Positions 3,292 to 51,451 of a stretch of 64,000 nt of DNA are shown here, piece after piece (within the stretch, counting starts at the first letter, position 1; each line of letters starts with the position of its first letter). The DNA is from Phallusia mammillata. Its lineage: Eukaryota. The notes beneath the pieces are model-generated. The model was not told where the DNA came from. It worked only from the letters and a program-made list of their open reading frames with translations, and did no database searches. Made by a program: the position numbers and the translations under genes. The stretch is taken from the NCBI GenBank assembly GCA_965637545.1, contig OZ281496.1, forward strand, positions 16,802,001-16,866,000. Direction: 5' to 3'.

Positions 3292-3341
3292 CAAAACAAA
3301 TGCATTTCGCTATAAAAAGCATCATCAGTGTCTAAAAACAA
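3292..3341 (-). ncRNA. Minimal type I hammerhead ribozyme (inverted pLTR copy)
   Basis: ACA-CUGAUGA-U-GCU(UUUUAU)AGC-GAAA-UGCAU-U-UGU: full catalytic core, short helix II, palindromic helix III. Confidence 0.7.
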
Positions 3342-3653
3342 AATAAAAAGCGGGATAAAAGCAAAAAATACAAAAAACGCACACACCCAGACCAACCACA
3401 AAAAGCCTATCCTCTGTCTTACAGGACTGCAAATGCAGACCGGCAGGTATGGCGCTGATTAAAACCACGAAAAAAGGCGAGGAAAAGATAAGGGCGCAAA
3501 ACGAAAAAACAAACACGATTGTAGCAATAAAGCGATTGCAGTCAACGAACCGCAGGAAGGACCATAGCTTGAACATTTATTGTGGCGCCCGTTAAAATTA
3601 GCCATTTGTTTTCACAAACGTCCAAATTTTCAGTCCGAGGTTAATTTCGCAAG

Positions 3654-6630
3654 TTGAAAATGCAAATACGTAAAATGGAGAATGATTTAGCCAACATCCA
3701 CAGACAAGCCCACTTCTCCAAATATGCACATAATCTGAAAAATCACAAAAGGACTATTGCAAGAAACTTTATCCGGAAAGTCAACCGACACCCAAAGGTA
3801 CAGAAAAAGAAAAGCTTACAAAATAAGAGAAAACATTGTACAACAGGCCTCACAAGTCATTCTTAATAAATCGGCGTTTAACCTGGACGACAATGACAAA
3901 ATTCTTCTGATGAAAGGTCCAAATTTCGTCGCGACGCCAAATTGGGCAACAGCAGTAGAGACGAACGAATGGCTGAACACTCAAGCACATATCAGAAGAG
4001 TGGAATGGGCACACGTGTTTGAAAATAGCGAAGCAGAGTATGTTGCATTACCACGTAAGCTGACAGTCCCACGACACTCGAGACCAGACAAGAGCCAGCT
4101 AGATGATGTCACCATTGCGTACGTAGAAGGTGTCATGGCAAAAATGCGCAACTTGAAAGAAGAAGTAATCCAGCGGTATAAGAAGAAAAACAACCTTTCT
4201 GTAGACCTACGAAAAAGTTTTCACAAACTTCAATCAATGGTTCGTGACAAAAAAATCGTTATCTGTCGTTCAGACAAGGATGGTAAAATTATCATCATCA
4301 ACTATACTGATTATGACAAGATCATGAAGCGAGAACTAGCACAGTTTGTGGAGCTTGACATGACAGCTGAGGGACTTGTGCAACACCTGGATAAAGTCCG
4401 TAAAATGTGTGACAAGTACATGATGGCGCTCCACGCTGAAGGTGCAATAACTGAAAAGCTTCTCTACGCTACGGTAGGGATAAAATTTCAAAACAACCGC
4501 TATCACCACACACACGGTTGTTTGTCGAAAGTATTTTGCAACAACAACACAGCATATGCCTACCCGTTATTCAAGACGCACAAAGTACAACCGGTCTTGC
4601 TTCCATCCATCGACGCCGCCGACATCCCAATCAGACTACTTCAGTCCGCTGGAAACATCACGACATCACGGATAACGGCATTTCTGGAACTTGTACTCCA
4701 GCCCATTAGTGTGGCATACTGTCGGTCTTTCGTGGATGAATATTGCCGTGACACCCGAGACTATCTCATGCAATTGGACCACTGGAAAACGGCGCATGAT
4801 TCACAAATGCGCCCTAATCGACCTCTTTTTCTGGTTACAGCAGACGTCACAAAAATGTATGCAAATCTGCGCCGCGATATTGTCGCAGAGGCTTTGCTGG
4901 ACGCTACGGCTACACAATCAACACTATCTGCAAACGCTTGCCAATCGCTGATGCAGCTGGTGATGTACTGCCTAAAAAATGTAATAACTCAGTACCAACA
5001 AGCATTTTTTCAGCAGGCAGAAGGAATTGTCACAGGAGACAACCACTGGGTGACACTAAAACGCTGAATGGGCGGGAGATGGCGGGACGTCGTGAAAACC
5101 GCTGAATATCGGGTTAAATTGCTGACGGTTAGTGCTATTAAGGTTGGTATAAAGTTTTATAATAGAAAATCATTAAAAATAATTCCCCCGGATACCTTCC
5201 GCGACCGAGCGAAACATTCAGCGGCCGAGGGAAACATTCAGCGTCCGAGGGAGACTTCCCGCCCAAGCATTTTTGCTGAATGTCAGGAAACAGCTGAATA
5301 AGTTTTAGGCAGGGACATTTTTTGATTCATATACTTTTATAAAACCTCAACCCAACCCTAATAGCACTAACCGTCAGCAATTTACCCGATATTTAACGGT
5401 TTCCGCGACGTCCCGCCCATTCAGCGTTTTAGTGTCACCCCAACCACTCGGTTTCAGTGGCAAATATTACAGCCCATTACATCATCAAACAAGAAGTGCG
5501 TGCTGTGGGTAAAACAGAACTATTTCGCCGATATATTGACGACATAGTTTGGCTGTCGTATGGAAAGACCCGCACGTTGGCTGTGGAACGCGCCTTAAGG
5601 GATAGGTTTGCACGAAATCACCTCGAAATAACCTTCCGCTGCATCTCCACTAACAAAGATGGCTCTCGGCTGGAGTTTCTTGATGTACTGCACATCATAG
5701 ACAAAACCTCGCGGGGTGGTTTTTACACCACCAACTATGTAAAACCTACGGCAAAAGGGAGATTATTCCTCAACGGCACGTCCCACCATCCACCTTGGAT
5801 TTTTAGAGGCATCGTGTTTGGGGAGTGCATTCGTCTCCGCCGACTTAATGAAATGCATGACCGATATAGGTCCAGCCTCTGCGACCTTGAGGCAAAATGT
5901 CGACGCTCCAGTTTTCCATTTAAAGTGTATTCCGCCATACTTACTGCAGCAGCCAAATGGAAGGAACGTTTTGCCCCCCCCAACTTCCAGACACCGGAGC
6001 GAAAAAAGAATTGTTTGGGCGACTTCCTTCACCAACATTCTACGACTGACTGACCGGGAAAGGCAGTTGAAGCCATCAGCGTGTGTAGTCTACAAGCGAC
6101 CCTTCACCATCGGCGCTGCCTTGATGCGTTACAAAATATTAGCGCACGAAACAGCAGATCATAAAACAGGATCTTATCCTTGTGGCAAATGCGCCCTGTG
6201 CGGTCACCACGGCAAATCCAAATCAATGGTTTTTCCGGTGACTGACTTGCGGTCACAACAAAGACTGTTCCACTTACGTCAGCAACTTTCGTGTCGTAAC
6301 TACGGAATATATGTTGCCACGTGTTTGGCGTGTGAAGAACAATATGTCGGCCAAACTAAAAATAAGTTTTCGACCCGATGGAATTCACATCGAGCTGTTT
6401 GGCGGACGTCCGACATAAGTGTAGGGGGTGACCGCGCGGCCCTTCTTCAGCACTACCACAATAAACATTTCCGACTTTTCCAAAAAAAGTTAGGTATTGC
6501 ACAATGCTATAATGTGGTTTTTGTAGAGGAACCTCGGACTGAAAATTTGGACGTTTGTGAAAACAAATGGCTAATTTTAACGGGCGCCACAATAAATGTT
6601 CAAGCTATGGTCCTTCCTGCGGTTCGTTGA
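3654..6630 (+). pseudogene. PLE RT-GIY-YIG ORF, disrupted by a MITE and about two frameshifts
   Basis: SDKDGK, ADVTKMY, TGDNHS(MITE)VSVANI, RYIDD, FLDV, YVKPT, CGKCALC, YGIYVATCLACEEQYVGQT, RWNSH. Confidence 0.9.
5048..5440. mobile_element. MITE with ~120-bp imperfect TIRs (MULE- or Merlin-like) inserted in the PLE RT
   Basis: TIR GGGTGACACTAAAACGCTGAATGGGCGGG; perfect 8-bp TSD CAACCACT (5040-5047, 5441-5448); removing it restores the reading frame. Confidence 0.9.
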
Positions 6631-6831
6631 CTGCAATCGCTTTGTTGCTACAATCGTGTTTGTTTTTTCGTTTTGCGCCCTTATCTTTTCCTCGCCTTTT
6701 TTCGTGGTTTTAATCAGCGCCATACCTGCCGGTCTGCATTTGCAGTCCTGTAAGACAGAGGATAGGCTTTTTGTGGTTGGTCTGGGTGTGTGCGTTTTTT
6801 GTATTTTTTGCTTTTATCCCGCTTTTTATTT

Positions 6832-6882
6832 TGTTTTTAGACACTGATGATGCTTTTTATAGCGAAATGCATTTGTAAAACA
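6832..6882 (+). ncRNA. Minimal type I hammerhead ribozyme (3' pLTR)
   Basis: CTGATGA 6844-6850, GAAA 6864-6867; helix I ACA/TGT plus TGTTTT/AAAACA; predicted cleavage after 6873. Confidence 0.7.
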
Positions 6883-41899: not shown

Positions 41900-42311
41900 T
41901 AACCCTGTTTACATGCGTCGTCTTCAAACGGATCGGATTAAGCCTCAAGCCGGCTTGAGATTTGATCCATTCGAGCGTCCTATTTACATGCGCGTTTCGT
42001 GCAAGTTTAATCCGTTCCGATTTTCTTCGGATAAGTTTGTGTAAACATAGTTATAACACCTCTTGTTTTGGTTACAAAGGATACTTACAAAGTAACTAAC
42101 AATTATCGCCTGTTTTATTGTGTGAAAAGGATCACTCCTTCATTCAGAGCTTTTGTAGAAGTGAGAAATCAAGCTGTTAGTTTCCTATAAGCAGTTAGGG
42201 TAACTGATTGACATTTTTTCTTGTCATTTGGTTTATTGTTAACTGTTGGGTTCTAAAGCTGATGGAACAAACCGTGCTTAAGTATTATATTTTGTTTAGA
42301 TAACAATAAAA

Positions 42312-43591
42312 ATGAACTATCAAGAAATACTTGGATTTGTCCTTGTCATAAAATATGTTTTGGACTGTTACATTATGATGGTTGAGTGGGACAGAGAGAG
42401 CAAATACAAAAAGTTTAAGTTACTATTTGGTAGACTGAAGTTCTTGCAGAGCAAAGTTGACAAGCGAAGTGGCAGAATTTGGATGTATCCAAGGTAGTAA
42501 ACTGTAACTAGCCAACCTATGTTATGAAGCTTTTTTAAAATTATAAAATGTTACAGGACAGGAAACTACTGGGAAGGTGATGTTTCACAGTACAATGCAC
42601 AATGGATCCAAAACTTCAGGATGACAAAAGAAAACTTCATGGAGTTGTTGGCTATAATTCATGATGACATAAAACCAGGTTAGGACCAAATATATGGAAA
42701 TACATTTGAAACATCTTTATCATTAAAGTGCTACCTAAGTAATCATATATTGCAGAGGACATAACAGTCCGTGAGCCAATACCAGTTGACAAAAGAATGG
42801 GAATTGCTGTTTTTAAACTCGCTTCCTCAGCAGAATACAGAACAGTTGCCCACAACTTTGGTGTCAGTAAAGCAAGTGTATACAACTGTCTCAAAAGGTA
42901 CATGCAAAACATTTGTATGTTTGTGTTTCTTATTACTCCTTGTTACAGATTTTGTTTGGCGATTTGCAAAAGGTTGGACATGTTTATATTCATGCCATCA
43001 GAGGGTGAAGCAAAGGAGATTGCAACAAGAATTCAAAGAGAACACCATTTTCCACAGGTATATGTTCTCAAATATAATTTGTGTGTAGGTTTTATTTGTT
43101 GCTTATGTGCAGGTTATGGGTTGCATTGATGGAAGTCATATTCCAATAACTGCCCCCATGCAAGGCAAAAAATACTATACTAATCGCAAGGGTTGGGATT
43201 CAATGGTACTGCAAGGCCTTGTTGATGATCATTACATGTAGGTAAAATACACTTATATGTTTTTGGCAGTATTTAATTTTTATTTTTATCTTAGGTTTCG
43301 TGATGTTAATATTGCAATGCCTGGGAGTGTTCATGATGCTACTGTCTTTAAGCAGTCAGGACTTTTCAAATATTCAGACATGCTACCAAAGGTACAAATC
43401 TAGTTTTAAAAACAAATTTGGTAAAAAAAAACCTACTGGATTTTGAAAAAAAATGCTTTTCATGCACCCATTTTACTTAATGACACTGAAGTGCCTCTTA
43501 ATTTTGGGAGACCCAGCATACCCTCTGCTTCCATGGTTAATCAAGCCCTTTATTGGCTTCAACCTTTCCCCAGAAAAAGAATCATTCAACT
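42312..43591 (+). pseudogene. Harbinger transposase exons 1-7, cut after ESFN; C-terminal tail at 49212-49377
   Basis: WIQNFRMTKENF, NFGVSKASV, GCIDGSHIP, YTNRKGWDS, PGSVHDA, LGDPAYPLLPWLIKPF; short GT-AG introns. Confidence 0.9.
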
Positions 43592-44699
43592 TGTAGCGGT
43601 TGCGACATAATTTGTGCAAACTTTGCAATATTTGTTTACCAAAATAGCTCGGTTTTTGACTCGCTAGCTCAAAGGCAGCGAGGAAGTTAAAATGTATAGC
43701 AACCAAATCCCACTGTATTGACAAATCGTGTTCGGACTTTGTAATATTTCCTGTCGCAGTTAATTAGGATGCAGAGGCGACTTTGTGATCTGGTGTTTGC
43801 GAGCTTTAACCGTATGTTTTGTACCGCGCTGTGATTGGACGTTACTTTCTGTGGAAATTTGTGCAAGAGCCAATGGCCAGAGCATAGTTATGCAGTTTAA
43901 TACCACGTGTTATGAATTGATAAAACGCACCGCTAATGTAATTGGTCACAACAGTTTTAGCCCAATAGCAGTTAACTTAATTTGCTTGCTGTCCAAAATG
44001 GTTACTTTAGAGCAGGGGCGGGCAACTTCTCCAGTGGGCGGGCCTGATTAAGGAAAATGAAGTACTTGGCGGGCCGGATTCCTGAATCGACACATTAATC
44101 GTGTATTTATCCAGTGATTTAAAACGGATTTTTGACCACCTAAACCAAATACATTCAAGAACATCACAAATACAATACAGTCCAAACAATCTTACTGATA
44201 TAATACAAAATTATTCACCACAGCGAATTTAATGCATACACCACAGACTTAGATACTGCTGAAACACTAACGAGGCTACACCTGTGGAAACAAAAGAAAC
44301 CGTGAAAGCAGGCCACACACATGGCAGTTATGGCGTAACAATGGACGTATGGTGCAATGGTAACAACGGCGGGAAAGTTTTTGCTATTGGGGAGCGTTAC
44401 TGTCCGTTTCAACTATAATTTGACGCAGTAGGCAAGTAGTGGGGGAATGCGGCAGACCGTGGCCGCGGGCCACATTATCATGCAAGACCTGAAACTGTCT
44501 GCGGGCCGCTCAAAATCCCGTCGCGGGCCGGATCCGGCCCGCGGGCCGTATGTTGCCCGCCCCTGCTTTAGAGTAATATGTTTGTTGTTAGTAGAACTTG
44601 AAATTATGAGTAAAGGTTGTTATTATTACTTTCTAACGACTTGTTTTGTTTCTTAAACATTCTATTTGAATAAGAATAAGCATGTTGATTGAATAAACA
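43592..44699 (+). repeat. 5' LTR (contains a MITE); 3' boundary uncertain (44659 or 44699)
   Basis: TG start, homology to 301-754, AATAAA near 44692; no canonical TGG PBS seen. Confidence 0.6.
44013..44565. mobile_element. hAT MITE inside the LTR
   Basis: TIR CAGGGGCGGGCAAC; TSD CTTTAGAG. Confidence 0.92.
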
Positions 44700-44733
44700 A
44701 ACTGAGGTGCAAAACCCTTGTTGATCGAGACTC

Positions 44734-45363
44734 ATGACATTGATTGATGAAGAAAACTCTGAAAGTGAGGACGAAAGTACAGGTAGCCTTTATCTACCAC
44801 ACGTAATACCGCTTGGCGTGCCACCGCGCCGTCCGCTGGTTTATTACAGAAACGTATACAGAGACTGGTGCGCTAGACTGTTTGTTCTACCAGACTATTT
44901 TGAACTCCCGCCTAGGGAAGAATTCATTGAAAGTGTTTTGACTAAAGACATTGCCGTGCAAATAAGTCCATTCAATACCAACGGAAGGTATATTACCACA
45001 ACGTATAGCTTCAATCAACTAATCATCAGAGATCCAGACGAAGCTGATCGTTATCACGATCTATACGCTATACGTAAATTTACCAACATAAGCGCTGTGT
45101 TGTTAAGCAGGTTACGAAGGCCATTTACTACACCTTTGTACCCACAAAGTTTGGTGCTTCCCGAGGTTTGGACACAAGATCTCACTATTCGCTCCGAGAC
45201 CGTTGATTTACTTCTCGTGTATCACGCAAGTGAAATCCCAGCTGAGAGAGGAGGAGGTGTACACATTTTCACCATCCAGACAATAATCTTTGAACCCGAG
45301 GAAACTGTGGAACCCGAGGACATTGCAGAAACTGAGGAGACTGCTAGGATTGAGGAGATCTAA
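44734..45363 (+). CDS. Orphan 209-aa ORF between LTR and gag
   Basis: ATG to TAA uninterrupted, acidic termini, no family recognised. Confidence 0.6.
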   Translation: MTLIDEENSESEDESTGSLYLPHVIPLGVPPRRPLVYYRNVYRDWCARLFVLPDYFELPPREEFIESVLTKDIAVQISPFNTNGRYITTTYSFNQLIIRDPDEADRYHDLYAIRKFTNISAVLLSRLRRPFTTPLYPQSLVLPEVWTQDLTIRSETVDLLLVYHASEIPAERGGGVHIFTIQTIIFEPEETVEPEDIAETEETARIEEI

Positions 45364-45635
45364 TTTCAGCTGCCCCACGAAAGGTGAGCAGAATTTGAAG
45401 TTATATTCTTGGCTGTTGTTTAATTACTGCTTGCATGTATTTTGTTGAATGTGTATGATCAATAACGATCAAACTGTCTAAAACAATTCGCCAAGCAACT
45501 TGTGGGAATCCTCCCAGTTTACCAGATAAGATTAAATCCGCTGTAAGCCAAGGTACGCGCAGTAAAACGAAATCTAAAGATAAAGAAAAGCCCAATCAAC
45601 GTACCGTTGCAATACAGACTCCGTCAGTTGCAACC

Positions 45636-47195
45636 ATGACTACGCCAAGTACTAGTGGGTCCTCAAAACAAACGACGCAAAGCGATAATGCAGTTGAAAA
45701 TCGCAGTGATAATGACAAATTACGCATCTCGTTGATGAAAATTCCGCCGATTTGGCCTAACCAACATGACATAAAAGAATATTTTGCGTTTTTGGACAAA
45801 TTTTATGAATCCAACCAAATCAGAGATGAAGCAACTAAATTTCAATTGTTTGTTTCTAACCTAACCCCAACGCAATCAGCCAATTACAGAAATGCTTTAA
45901 CTGAAGCAACCGCTTCATTAACAGAACCCTACAGTACGCTCAAACGAGAAATAATTGATTCAGTACATGGGGGATCGAAATTAAATTGGTTAAAGCATTT
46001 AAAATCAATTTCGTTCATGTCACCTGACGAGAGACCTTCTGCTCTGATGCAACGTTTAATTGCCGCATGCAAATACAATCCCCAAAATGACGCAGTTACG
46101 CGTGATTTGTTGGAAGAACATTTCACATCGCTAATGCCAACAGATGTCCAAAATATCATTAAGGCTCAAAATTTTGAAACCCTAAAAGATTTGGGAAAAT
46201 TTTCAGACAAATATTTTGACCCTGATAAAGTAAACTCACCCAGGGATTCGAACAATGAACAAATTGCAATGCTAACTGCTAAAATGGATGAAGTGTTAAC
46301 TTCTGTATCTCAATACAAACTAAACCAGTCACAGATGCATGCCCAACCTCAGGCTGCGCAATTTCAACCCCAAATGAAGCGAAATAACTACTTCAAAAAT
46401 TACAATCACCAATCGCGCAATTTTTACAATAATTCACAAAACGGCAATTTCCCGAGAGGTTTTGCCAATGGCCCGCGGCAATTTAGGCCTCAAGCGCCCG
46501 CCAATTTTGATTCCCAGCCTCGATATTTCCAACATCAAAATGGCCAACGTTTTCCACCACGGTTTCAAAACCGTGCGAGGTTCAACACATACCGTCACAA
46601 CAACCCAGACTTTTGTTACTATCATGATAGATATGGAAAAGATGCATACAGATGCACAAAACCTTGTAAATTTGCGGAAACTCAAAACATAAATGCAATT
46701 AAGTCAGTTGGAATTGACATGCACACAAATATGTCCACTTTGTCAAACATAAGTCAAGGAAATGAAAATTTACCTCATGTTTTTGACACGATAAACAATC
46801 AAACGTTTCTAATAGATTCAGGAGCCACAAAAAGTTTTATGCCTGTTCTCCCAAATGAAAAGAATAATGACTCAAAGCAGCTTTTTGCAACTGCCAATGG
46901 CTCACCTGTAAAATGTTACGGCACAAAAGAAATTGAAATTAATATCGGTTTTGGGCCTATGAAGACTATGTTTTACATTTGCAACATAGAATTTCCGGTT
47001 TTGGGATTTAACTTCTTGCAAGAAAAACAACTTAACCTTCAACCACATTCCAAAACGCTGGAATGCAGCAAAACAGGCGTAAAAGTTGACCTAATCATAA
47101 AACCTGATTGCGGATCACGCATGCCCATTTTAAATGAACAAAAGTACCTGCAACTTTTGGCTAATTACCCCGAATTGACTAAGACTCCTGACTAA
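45636..47195 (+). CDS. gag: Gag-protease
   Basis: CHCC gag motif; protease FLIDSGA..ILGFNFL-type motifs. Confidence 0.9.
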   Translation: MTTPSTSGSSKQTTQSDNAVENRSDNDKLRISLMKIPPIWPNQHDIKEYFAFLDKFYESNQIRDEATKFQLFVSNLTPTQSANYRNALTEATASLTEPYSTLKREIIDSVHGGSKLNWLKHLKSISFMSPDERPSALMQRLIAACKYNPQNDAVTRDLLEEHFTSLMPTDVQNIIKAQNFETLKDLGKFSDKYFDPDKVNSPRDSNNEQIAMLTAKMDEVLTSVSQYKLNQSQMHAQPQAAQFQPQMKRNNYFKNYNHQSRNFYNNSQNGNFPRGFANGPRQFRPQAPANFDSQPRYFQHQNGQRFPPRFQNRARFNTYRHNNPDFCYYHDRYGKDAYRCTKPCKFAETQNINAIKSVGIDMHTNMSTLSNISQGNENLPHVFDTINNQTFLIDSGATKSFMPVLPNEKNNDSKQLFATANGSPVKCYGTKEIEINIGFGPMKTMFYICNIEFPVLGFNFLQEKQLNLQPHSKTLECSKTGVKVDLIIKPDCGSRMPILNEQKYLQLLANYPELTKTPD

Positions 47196-47229
47196 GACTC
47201 CTGACTATCGAGTTCCTGTTCGACATCCG

Positions 47230-49377
47230 GTGGAACAACATTTAACGACAACAGGTCGTCCCCCAACCTGTAGGGCACGTAGAGTACATCCCGAGCTTTA
47301 CAAACAAATGAAGACACAAATTCAAGAAATGTTGAATTCCGGTTTGATTAAAAGATGCAATTCTGAATACGCAAGTCCACTGCAAATAGTTAAGAAGCCA
47401 AATTCAAATGACCTAAGGCTCTGCGGCGATTTTAGAGAAATCAACCAACAATTAAAGAAAGATAATTATGCACTTCCGTCACTACGAACGGCCTATGAAT
47501 TATTACATGGCTCTACCATTTTTTCGATTCTTGACCTTACCTCTGCATTTCACCATGTCCCAATTCGTCCAGAGGACCAAAAGAAAACTGCCATTCGAAC
47601 ACCCCTTGGTACTTTTTGTTATACGCGGTCCCCTTTTGGATTGTCCACTTCCGCACAGGTGTTTCAACGCCTTATCGACCTTGCCCTAGGTTCATTGCAA
47701 TGGTGCTATGCGTATCTTGATGACATAATTGTGTATAGTCGCAACGAAACTGAGCATATGGAGCATTTAAACAAGGTCTTTCAAAAGCTCAATGAATACG
47801 GGTTGCATTTGAACATCGACAAGTGTCGCTTTGGCCGCAAACAAGTCAAATTCTTAGGCCACTTGGTGACGCCAGAGGGCGTACAGCCAAACCCAGACAA
47901 AATTGCGGCGATTAAAAACTTCCCTCAACCGGCTACGACCAGACAATTAAGACGGTTCATCGGCATGTGCCAATTTTTTGCCCCTAGTGTGCCATTGTTG
48001 TCACGTAAGCTAAAACCGCTCTATGAATTGCTTAATGGAAAAGATCCCCGTAATAAAAAGATAACTTGGAATGGCACATTACAGGAAGCGTTTGAAAGCG
48101 TCAAACAAGCCCTTGCTAATTATACCGCCCTCGCTTACCCTCACCCAAAAGGAGAACTAAGTTTAATTACAGATGCGAGTGACAATTCTGCTGGAGGTGT
48201 ACTCCAACAAACAGTAGGAGACGAAACTCAGCCATTGGGATTTTTCTCAAAATTGTTCAACAAAACGCAAACGAAATATTCGGCGTTCGATAGAGAGCTC
48301 ACAGCCATCGTGTTTTCAATAAAGCATTTCCGTTATTTTCTTGAAGGTCGAAAATTCACCGTATATACAGACCACAAAGCAATTGTTGATGCATTTAATG
48401 CCGACAAACCGCGCGAAAACGCAAGACAATCCAGAGCCCTAGCGTTTATTTCTGAATATACCAGTGACTTACGTTTCCTACCTGGTGCTTCAAATGTGGT
48501 AGCTGACACAATGTCACGCCCCAACATAAATTCTATTTTCAGACATGCTGCAGAAATTGACTGGCAACAAATAGCTATTGCCCAAAAGCGTGACCAAACC
48601 CTGCAGGATTTTTGCAAATCAGATCATTCTCTTAACCTGGTTAATAAACCGATACCAGGGGTACCTGACTTGACTTTACTGTGTGATACTTCAATCCCTG
48701 GAACAAACAGGCCTTTAGTACCCACAGGATTCAGGAAATTGATTTTTGACAATGCCCACAACCTTACCCACTGCGGTGTAAAAGCAACGCTAAGACTAAT
48801 TTCTTCCAAATACGTATGGCCGTCCCTTCGTCGTGACGTCACAACTTGGTGTAAGACGTGCATAATTTGTCAACGTACAAAAGTTGTAAGACACACTGTA
48901 ACTCCCTTTGTCAGATATCCTGTTGTGTCAGATAAATTTAAAAACATAAATGCTGACGTCATTGGACCGCTCCCAGCATCTGCAGGTTGTTCCTACATAT
49001 TTGTAATAATAGACAGGTTTACGCGATTTCCTGTAGCGATCCCACTAAGCAACATCAGAACCACAACCCTTTTAAATGCATTAATGCATAACTGGATAAG
49101 TAACTTTGGCGTACCGGAAGTCTTAAGTACAGATAGAGCCTCAACGTTTTGTGGCAAGGCGTGGAAGGAAGCAATGCAATTCTTAGGAATTAGACACATA
49201 ACCACTACTGCTTGCTTATCTACTGCTTATGATGGAAGCAATCAATTTACCCAGCCACTACCTGCTCCTTCAGTACAAACTGCTGACCTTTTTGGTGCTG
49301 GAAATAGTGTAAGACAGGCTGTTTTGCAGTACCTAACTGAAACACAGCCACTGCGCCAGTCATCGCGATTTTTGTAA
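47230..49377 (+). CDS. pol: Pol (RT-RNase H-truncated IN) fused in frame to the Harbinger tail
   Basis: LDLTSAFH, PFGL, YLDD, TDAS, RELTAI, HNLTH..CIIC, ADVIGP, TDRAST; the last ~55 aa end GNSVRQAVLQYL. Confidence 0.9.
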   Translation: MEQHLTTTGRPPTCRARRVHPELYKQMKTQIQEMLNSGLIKRCNSEYASPLQIVKKPNSNDLRLCGDFREINQQLKKDNYALPSLRTAYELLHGSTIFSILDLTSAFHHVPIRPEDQKKTAIRTPLGTFCYTRSPFGLSTSAQVFQRLIDLALGSLQWCYAYLDDIIVYSRNETEHMEHLNKVFQKLNEYGLHLNIDKCRFGRKQVKFLGHLVTPEGVQPNPDKIAAIKNFPQPATTRQLRRFIGMCQFFAPSVPLLSRKLKPLYELLNGKDPRNKKITWNGTLQEAFESVKQALANYTALAYPHPKGELSLITDASDNSAGGVLQQTVGDETQPLGFFSKLFNKTQTKYSAFDRELTAIVFSIKHFRYFLEGRKFTVYTDHKAIVDAFNADKPRENARQSRALAFISEYTSDLRFLPGASNVVADTMSRPNINSIFRHAAEIDWQQIAIAQKRDQTLQDFCKSDHSLNLVNKPIPGVPDLTLLCDTSIPGTNRPLVPTGFRKLIFDNAHNLTHCGVKATLRLISSKYVWPSLRRDVTTWCKTCIICQRTKVVRHTVTPFVRYPVVSDKFKNINADVIGPLPASAGCSYIFVIIDRFTRFPVAIPLSNIRTTTLLNALMHNWISNFGVPEVLSTDRASTFCGKAWKEAMQFLGIRHITTTACLSTAYDGSNQFTQPLPAPSVQTADLFGAGNSVRQAVLQYLTETQPLRQSSRFL

Positions 49378-49461
49378 CATGTTTTGTATTTTTGAATGTT
49401 TCATAATGAACAATACATATGTAAATATGAACAAAAAATGTAAGTTTTAATTTAAAAAAAT

Positions 49462-50997
49462 CTACTCTTGTAAATTTTCCGCATTTTGCAGAACCACAAC
49501 TTGTGATTGTTGTTGCACCAGTGCCGCTAGTTGCTGCAGACCTTCCTGTAGTGTTTTGTTCATAGATTCCACCATTGCCTCTCTGCTTTTTCTATCCTTT
49601 TCACTTTCTTTTTCAAATAAATTCATGAATCTGTCCCATTCTTGTGTTGGTGTTTGTCCTGCAAAATAGAACATCATACATGGTAATTGACTAGGTATGG
49701 TAAGTATCTTAGCACCATACCAAAGAAACCACACAACAAATTTTACTGCCTAGACTTGTGTTATTAGTGGACACAGGTTGTTATTTAGCATTTGTAACAA
49801 CAGTTGTAAGAGTATTACTTACGCCGTGGTCTTTTATCTTTACTTGCTCTACCGTGCTGACCTGCAATATATACTAACAGGTCATTTTCTATTACTTAAA
49901 CTTTAAGCAAATAACACACCAGATTTTTTTCGCTTAAAAGCAGTAGATGTTGTGGCCACATCGTCATCAGTTTGTTCTTCATCGGCAGTTGGCTCATCCA
50001 TCATGCTGCTAGCCCTTGAATGTGACAAGCTACTACCAGCACTTGTTTCCCCTATTATTGAGCTTACTTCTGCATCTTCAGCTGCTTGATGTGTAATGTT
50101 GTGTTCAGCAGCAGGTTCTTGCACCTCTAATAAAATTAAACCATGCAAAGTCTTGTACAAAGGAACCTATTTGAGCAAATAGAGCTTACCTTCCACACCA
50201 GACGTTTCATCCGAAAATGACTGAGATGCACCTAAAAGAACAATGCACATAAACATGTGATATACAACTGGATGTAACAGACAGTTTAGCAACAAATTAA
50301 ATACAAACCAACCATAAAATGACTGCAACTTTTACTGAAAGTCATGCATTATCAAATATTTAAAAATATTACCATGTTTTTGTTGCATGGTGTCCACCAT
50401 CACAGAATGTCCTTGAATTGCCTGAAAATACATGTTTATACAATGGTAAATAAATATGTATTGTCATGTACAACATCTACAACAAACAGCGGTTGGTACT
50501 CACTTGTGTTCTCGGTCGATCTGACAATATTTCCTTCATTTTGTCAAAAAATGGCCACCTTACAGAGCCTGCACCAGATTTTGATGTTGTTTTTAAAATG
50601 TTGTAAAACTGAGTTTTTATGTTTTTCCACTTTATTGAAATTTGTTTCCTGTATTGCAAAACATACAAAAATTCACATAAATGTAGGATAAAGCATTAAT
50701 TGAAACCGTCTTTGAAATGCTATGTAAGTAAATGTTTTAGACAAATCACGACCATGTCATTACCAATGGCATTTGAAAATAGTATTTTAATAAAAACTTT
50801 ATCTGTTATCAAATGTGTACCAACCAATCTCTTTGCAAATTTTGTTTTCTGAACTCATTCTCCAGTTGCTGATAATACTGCCGATTTCTTCCCACTTTGC
50901 CATCAATTTTAGCTATAATTTGCTTTTCTTCTATTAAACGCAACAATAAAAGTGTTTCTTCTTCAGACCAACTTCCCTGGCGAATTTTTTGACTCAT
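49462..50997 (-). CDS. Multi-exon Myb/SANT-like (trihelix) DNA-binding partner of Harbinger
   Basis: WSEEETLLLLRL..; KWKNIKTQF..WPFFDKMKEIL..RP; acidic linker; coiled-coil-like last exon. Confidence 0.8.
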
Positions 50998-51451
50998 TCT
51001 ATACCTTGTTTTGTATCCAACAATTCAACTAGTTGCTCATTCAATTCGTAAAATGATTCAAATTCTCAGGCTAATCATTTAAATAGACAAACTGCTGTAG
51101 AGAGACAAGTAATAAAACACATCCTAACTAGCAAGCCCATGGGCTTGCAGGACAATAAACTGGTCGTTAGTCTGCATACAACTAGCCTGGTATCTACTAA
51201 CCCAGTTTGCACTTCCACTGTGCGACAATTTGCACCTTACGTCCATTATTACAAAACATTTCAATACAAAGTAAACAAACTTGCAAAACAACATTTTTCT
51301 AACCTCCGCCGAACCTTACAACACAGCAAACGCGCCTTGGCGAGAAGGCCGATTAAGCGCGAAACGGATCAAACCACCTAGCGGCAAAAACGAGAGAAGC
51401 GGATTGACGAAACGGATTCGAATCCGTTTCAAACGTCCATGTAAACAGGGT

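Follow-up and report, generated by a model that had tools for sequence, protein, structure and literature searches.

Accessory genes, a hallmark of complex retroviruses, are seldom found in Gypsy elements of animals, and recent work on the sORF2 of MDG1 elements is reported to have shown that such small ORFs can conceal new biology. In a stretch of 64,000 nucleotides from Phallusia mammillata (contig OZ281496.1, positions 16,802,001 to 16,866,000; hereafter the window), a sequence-only reading had noted a 209-aa ORF in sense orientation ahead of the gag gene of a Gypsy element. We asked whether this frame, here called ORF0, is a gene and what its product might do. ORF0 runs intact from ATG to stop at 44734-45363 with no internal stop codon, while the remaining five frames over it contain 7-20 stops, and none of 5000 base shuffles of the 1070-nt region produced an ATG ORF as long. 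As had been described, it stops about 270 nt ahead of gag, the first ATG of which is located at 45636, 272 nt past the stop. Likewise, the donor-like AG/GTGAG noted near 45383 was found at 45383/45384 and is kept in six of the six other copies examined that contain the region. The features of the element, in window coordinates, are:

43592-45146, forward strand: 5' LTR (TGTAG...CCACA), delimited by BLAST of 30 loci and by solo-LTR termini with 4-bp target duplications
44013-44565, no strand assigned: putative hAT-like, non-autonomous DNA transposon of 553 bp inside the LTR, absent from the LTRs of other copies
44692-44697, forward strand: AATAAA, candidate poly(A) signal and the sole AATAAA of the LTR, 42 nt before the ATG
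44734-45363, forward strand: ORF0, 209 aa, with 138 codons in the LTR and the remainder running over the primer site into the leader
45152-45165, forward strand: primer-binding-site-like stretch within ORF0, able to pair in 6 + 6 nt with the 3' end of the host tRNA-Met(CAT), leaving a 2-nt bulge
45382-45388, forward strand: splice-donor-like AG/GTGAG, 20 nt past the ORF0 stop, predicted junction between 45383 and 45384
45459-45635, forward strand: gag-frame extension, 59 open codons ahead of the first ATG, basic, with changes biased to third positions and possibly a non-AUG start
45636-47195, forward strand: gag and protease, with DUF7041 and CX2HX9CX3C at residues 327-344 (Pfam and motif)
47179-49213, forward strand: pol (RT, RNase H, integrase), which in the window copy is in another frame than gag and breaks off in integrase

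The frame had been placed in the 5' leader, starting about 35 nt after the LTR end, and this placement was wrong. A search of the source genome (G000) with ORF0 yielded 72 matches, so that the ORF is not a one-off insertion; many of these were solo LTRs, and many ended at residue 138-142. The 30 best loci matched the window at 43592-44012 and from about 44566 to 45146, skipping 44013-44565, and the unit common to the other copies starts with TGTAG and ends with CCACA. The premature ends of the matches are explained by the end of this LTR unit at about 45146. Among the 29 other loci, 15 were solo LTRs with 4-bp target duplications, 3 ran into the primer site, 5 were preceded by a purine tract and 6 were left without assignment. 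The solo-LTR termini and the alignment of copies therefore place the ATG inside the LTR, at LTR position 582, with 138 codons within the LTR, and the frame crosses the primer site. The skipped segment has short terminal inverted repeats and an 8-bp target duplication (44005-44012 and 44566-44573), and judged by the latter it is probably a hAT-like insertion; after subtraction of its 553 bp, the 5' LTR is 994 bp in size.

The window ORFs encode protease, RT, RNase H and integrase in this order (Pfam), which together with TG...CA LTRs, a target duplication, a primer site and a purine tract identifies a Ty3/Gypsy (Metaviridae) element. The window copy is defective, with the LTR insertion, a frameshift near 47190 and a truncation in integrase at about 49213, and it has kept only the 5' LTR, whereas env and the 3' LTR are both present in other copies. 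It is nested in decayed transposon-like sequence (window 42300-43590 and 49214-51030), which we take to be of the PIF/Harbinger type; the left flank has transposase-like fragments with only weak HTH matches in Pfam, and the right flank a Myb/SANT gene.

In the other copies of this family, termed A, gag-pol is followed by a third ORF with weak matches to gB and rhabdovirus fusion domains and a C-terminal hydrophobic segment (PF00606 at E 1.7e-5 and PF00974 at E 1.2e-3 in A, and E 4.7e-9 in the related family B, all below the Pfam cut-offs). On these matches, the family qualifies as a gB-type env-carrying Gypsy lineage, an 'errantivirus' in the operational sense used in PMC13524379. The sequence-only reading, which had called the element CsRn1-like and had taken CsRn1-clade members normally to carry only gag-pol, was incomplete in this respect. 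The CsRn1 clade (CsRn1, Kabuki, Boudicca, Saci-3 and PwRn1) is characterised by a CX2HX9CX3C Gag motif and a tRNA-Trp primer site, and an env-like third ORF is itself reported for two members, Boudicca and Saci-3 (PMC2582038). The CsRn1 likeness stands for the Gag motif, which is present in family A and in the related family C, with no exact match in B (a CX4C variant) or D. It does not extend to the primer site: a tRNA-Trp site was rejected since the site matches the host tRNA-Met(CAT), and family A further differs from the clade in its long LTRs and in ORF0.

The ORF0-bearing copies showed only short or bulged primer-site matches. A recombinant copy (L225, about 1500-1520; G000:C4:4133368) contains a 20-nt site that is perfectly complementary to a host tRNA, called Met(CAT) by ARAGORN. 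In this copy the site is fused without a gap to sequence from the midst of ORF0's post-LTR part, and it points to tRNA-Met as the likely primer of the family. Subfamilies of family B are distinguished by a frame-keeping 6-nt indel at the primer site. The tRNA-Met end has 375 matches genome-wide, and large tandem tRNA arrays were observed for Met/Leu at G000:C4:7.37-7.47 Mb and beyond and for Lys/Glu at G000:C1:30.95-31.02 Mb.

To quantify selection, we calculated pairwise dN/dS values (NG86) for real copies, with Fisher tests; the pairs share history and are not independent. Comparisons of the window ORF0 with L002, L003, L028, L039 and L013 yielded ratios of 0.24, 0.26, 0.25, 0.22 and 0.21 (p 1.9e-3 to 3.2e-9), and the comparison with L018 a ratio of 0.48 (p 0.09). 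The gene is under purifying selection either side of the LTR end, with ratios of 0.25 and 0.33 for the LTR part (codons 1-138) and 0.10 and 0.12 for the post-LTR part (codons 139-195; p about 5e-4). Among near-identical copies (97-99%) the ratios scattered between 0.3 and values above 1, in keeping with the few changes accumulated after insertion. Relative to L002 and L003, ORF0 contained no indel, and the upstream LTR contained 7-8 single-base indels in about 250 nt. Codons 1-134 were free of stops and frameshifts in 23 of the 29 best other copies, which are top-scoring matches and hence biased towards intact ones. The earlier suggestion of an undescribed accessory gene under selection was thereby borne out: neither of the two outcomes it had named as contrary, family members without the ORF and dN/dS near 1, was what we found.

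Sister families were identified as RT relatives at 45-55% identity. Families A, B, C and D each have an ORF that starts in the LTR and crosses TGGTGC, the ORF being 269 aa in B (206 codons in a 1193-bp LTR), 276 aa in D (216 codons in an LTR of about 1316 bp) and 305 aa in C (251 codons in the LTR), while family E is known from LTR-sized pieces (solo LTRs) only. In an RT tree of 24 rows, comprising G000 elements only and no named CsRn1 members, A, B, C and D formed one clade with support 97/95, with long branches for C and D, apart from the short env-less elements of the same genome. The dN/dS values were 0.16-0.31 in B (7 whole-ORF comparisons), 0.13-0.21 in E (4), 0.08-0.20 in C (4, with dS saturated) and 0.28-0.63 in D (5, two of which were not significant).

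Clear homology links the ORF0 proteins of B, D and E, with E values of 1e-14 to 1e-26 and 27-33% identity of aligned residues. Similarity of A to the others was weak, with a BLASTP E of 0.009 over 13 residues, a profile-profile probability of 3%, and a profile score equalled by 2 of 300 shuffles. A motif in the post-LTR part reads DLLLVYHASE in A, DVLVIYHAAE in B and DIVLIYNARE in D, and the similarity of A in this part was significant (0 of 2000 shuffles, in a test devised after the alignment was seen), whereas that in the LTR part was not (1438 of 2000 shuffles). Position, RT clade and motif thus make the kinship of A with B, C and D appear firm, for the post-LTR part only; the LTR part of the A protein is either very diverged or replaced.

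Conservation of the frame could also reflect constraint on RNA or DNA elements such as U5, the primer site or a packaging signal, or an upstream frame that throttles gag, the protein being unimportant. ORF0 does overlap sequences required in cis, and little protein similarity is left between families in the LTR part. However, changes relative to L002 gather at third codon positions (11/9/32 for the three positions), and synonymous divergence within the subfamily is 0.22-0.27, close to the 0.28-0.33 of gag and RT, which indicates no special constraint on the bases; moreover, aligned residues are kept among B, D and E at the identities given above. The dN/dS and synonymous-divergence data largely refute this explanation, which we regard as highly improbable, and we are confident that ORF0 is a real protein gene.

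The absence of an obvious transmembrane segment and of a recognisable domain, both noted from the sequence, was upheld: the maximum 19-residue hydropathy was 0.80 in the 209-aa ORF and 0.45-1.14 across the five ORF0 proteins, no signal peptide or membrane segment was found, and no Pfam family matched at E<=1. ORF0 thus has no transmembrane helix like that of MDG1 sORF2, a FAST-like fusogen or an env-like ORF. The acidic ends reported for the protein hold for family A and are not a general trait, since the N-termini of B and E, unlike that of A, are Arg-rich. The idea of a captured host gene found no support, as no homologue was detected. AlphaFold2 models built from 15-16 rows were of low confidence (pLDDT 55 and pTM 0.57 for B, pLDDT 48 and pTM 0.46 for A), with a disordered N-terminus followed by long antiparallel strands and helices in a sheet-rich arrangement. 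Fold searches with these low-confidence models yielded nothing above background, and we found neither a sequence nor a fold match between ORF0 and known proteins.

The predicted build, a disordered charged N-terminus plus an alpha/beta core, and the size of the protein would suit a structural or assembly adaptor, either matrix-like or bridging Gag and Env, that was acquired together with the gB-type env or works on its behalf. Families A, B and D indeed carry env, with an atypical N-terminus that overlaps pol. On the other hand, no env was seen in the single family-C copy examined, matrix proteins are absent from the fold lists obtained with the low-confidence models, and sister env-carrying families manage without ORF0. 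Six such elements with LTR pairs and pol (LTRs of 306-609 bp) showed no ORF of at least 110 aa over the LTR end, and a B/D/E profile run over the sister loci gave nothing better than E 2; the scan also included three env-only copies, for which a single strand was listed, and a locus without an LTR pair. We consider the adaptor role improbable. The loci L172-L191 add at least five short-LTR Gypsy families with a gB-type env, several of them presumably with Trp-type primer sites, and include three env-only copies without pol.

Of the element's genes, ORF0 diverges fastest. Controls from the same subfamily gave dN/dS values of 0.09-0.11 for gag, 0.07-0.10 for RT, 0.08 for integrase and 0.14 for env, so that ORF0 has the highest ratio (0.21-0.26 versus 0.07-0.14), and its similarity is nearly erased between families in which gag is still 32-43% identical. 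Five of five family-B copies (L046/L052, L047/L053, L056/L057, L058/L059 and L060/L061, on C4, C6 and C8 of G000) have pairs of 1193-1195-bp LTRs that are 100% identical, with ORF0 and env open, and family B is thus young. The copy L054/L036, with LTRs 99.7% identical, has no LTR part of ORF0, and the gene is therefore not needed in cis. A second LTR type of about 600 bp (L036, L044, L050, L230-L235) has its first 293 bp in common with the family-A LTR and a different 3' half without ORF0; it is found on either side of A and B internal sequence in copies that are non-autonomous or recombinant.

Rapid divergence and an action in trans, as the ORF0-less recombinants suggest, would also be expected of an early counter-defence protein directed against host silencing (piRNA, siRNA, chromatin) or innate sensing, and the fastest divergence in the element fits such a conflict as well as it fits self-regulation. 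Yet no comparison of diverged copies yielded a dN/dS above 1, and the searches showed no resemblance of ORF0 to known suppressors, to nucleases or to chromatin domains, which leaves this function rather unlikely.

We propose that ORF0 is an accessory gene of an env-carrying Gypsy lineage that likely encodes an early, soluble, trans-acting self-regulator of expression or RNA fate, a proposal as a whole to which we give an even chance; that ORF0 is an early product of the first cistron is probable, and self-regulation is the likeliest of the roles considered, though at somewhat less than even odds. Both halves of ORF0 are selected in one frame, and transcription should therefore start in the 5' LTR upstream of the ATG. 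ORF0 would then be the first cistron, located in R/U5, and the first protein made by the element. The AATAAA ahead of the ATG may end transcripts just before ORF0, which would make ORF0 a U5 gene; D has a similar poly(A)-type site at -70, and the picture is less clear for B and C. Where the LTR is a 3' or solo copy, the ORF0 frame runs on into host DNA. An identical 16-nt stretch in A (window about 44659-44676) and C (L051), 45-75 nt ahead of the ORF0 ATG, is a candidate promoter or processing element.

A donor-like site is located 0-20 nt past the ORF0 stop in A, B and D, and none directly past the stop in C. Since the stop lies just before the donor, unspliced and spliced RNAs alike would yield the protein, which would thus be an early product. 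Contigs from possible RNA runs covered ORF0 mostly as read-through of one solo LTR; in one contig (depth 3) the match breaks exactly at the donor, 45383, which weakly hints at an acceptor located beyond 43400-49400. The start of gag is 270-510 nt downstream of ORF0, and its translation would then have to rely on internal initiation, a non-AUG start or a processed RNA. In all four families, A to D, the gag frame stays open for 47-60 codons ahead of its first ATG (window 45459-45635; L046, L117, L045), and this extension is basic and has a TRSK-like motif and no ATG, hinting at a non-AUG start. The protein, with a predicted alpha/beta core and a variable charged N-terminus, may work within the cell that makes it, its target being either transcription from the LTR or the splicing, export or stability of full-length RNA. 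Its likeness to regulators of the Rev/Rex/Tat type would consist of position and of the Arg-rich N-termini of B and E only. Unlikely, at present, is the wider picture of a 'complex' Gypsy retroelement in which U5 has grown into a 200-300-aa regulator without known fold that is translated through a degenerate tRNA-Met primer site, heads all LTR-driven RNAs as their first cistron and operates a spliced/full-length switch, a Rev/Tat-type convergence outside Retroviridae.

A gag frame that itself opens in the LTR and crosses the primer site is known from Ty1. Among the closest known analogues of ORF0 are the sORFs of the MDG1 elements of Drosophila (412, mdg1, Stalker, Blood), in which sORF1 is located upstream of gag, is translated and nuclear, and has a short transcript of its own (PMC11952523). 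As in our families, sORF1 and sORF2 are selected sense accessory ORFs ahead of gag in an animal Gypsy element, and sORF1 is soluble; sORF1, however, has a predicted helix-turn-helix and a size of about 110 aa, and MDG1 is described as having no env (PMC11952523), whereas ORF0 is 209-305 aa, predicted alpha/beta, mostly located in the LTR and crosses the primer site. No sequence match between ORF0 and sORF1 was found. ORFs that start in the 5' LTR are reported for groups IV and VII of the bat endogenous betaretroviruses, but these are Retroviridae with ORFs of 84-101 aa ending 3-26 nt from gag (PMC3621094), and there was no sign of a relationship with ORF0. The sag gene of MMTV is also LTR-encoded, but in U3 and read from the 3' LTR (PMC3621094), and plant Tat/Ogre elements also have an extra ORF ahead of gag, but with plant mobile or Tr28 domains (PMC4408406).

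Among tunicates, the ascidian HSV/gB-type 'errantiviruses' likewise combine Gypsy gag-pol with a gB-like env, but their LTRs, where coordinates are given, measure about 270-790 bp, unlike those of family A; the 15 tunicate rows of that report include no Phallusia element, and the words 'accessory', 'extra', 'sORF' and 'ORF0' are absent from its main text (PMC13524379). The Tor elements of Oikopleura are env-carrying LTR elements as well, and the env RNA of Tor3a is spliced from a donor near the gag start, but no upstream accessory ORF is described in that account (PMC4402516), and appendicularian env is classed as F-type (PMC13524379). Our literature search, within its limits, found no description of such an LTR-encoded protein family. 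Upstream accessory ORFs, LTR-start ORFs, frames that cross the primer site and gB-env Gypsy elements in ascidians are already known; what appears to be new is a family of 200-300-aa proteins without known relative, at least two-thirds LTR-encoded, that crosses a degenerate primer site in a clade-wide layout.

The gene sits in U5 and the primer site, which are usually deemed non-coding, and standard annotation therefore misses ORF0, although a whole clade carries this large, selected and fast-evolving gene. For an established embryo model, this raises the questions of the protein's function, of how ribosomes reach gag past a first cistron of 630-900 nt, of how a primer site can persist while it codes for protein, and of whether truncated ORF0 fusion peptides arise from the numerous solo LTRs. 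The ORF0 of family B is 100% identical to a P. mammillata record (UniRef100_A0A6F9DXU7; CAB3267959.1) that is filed as 'zinc finger protein 26' and has no Pfam zinc-finger match, and is thus misnamed; records such as CAB3267959.1 are presumably derived from transcripts. Elsewhere in the window, Penelope-like pieces are located at 3296-6876, with a GIY-YIG ORF at 5848-6630 (E 7e-5), within a 347-nt perfect inverted repeat.
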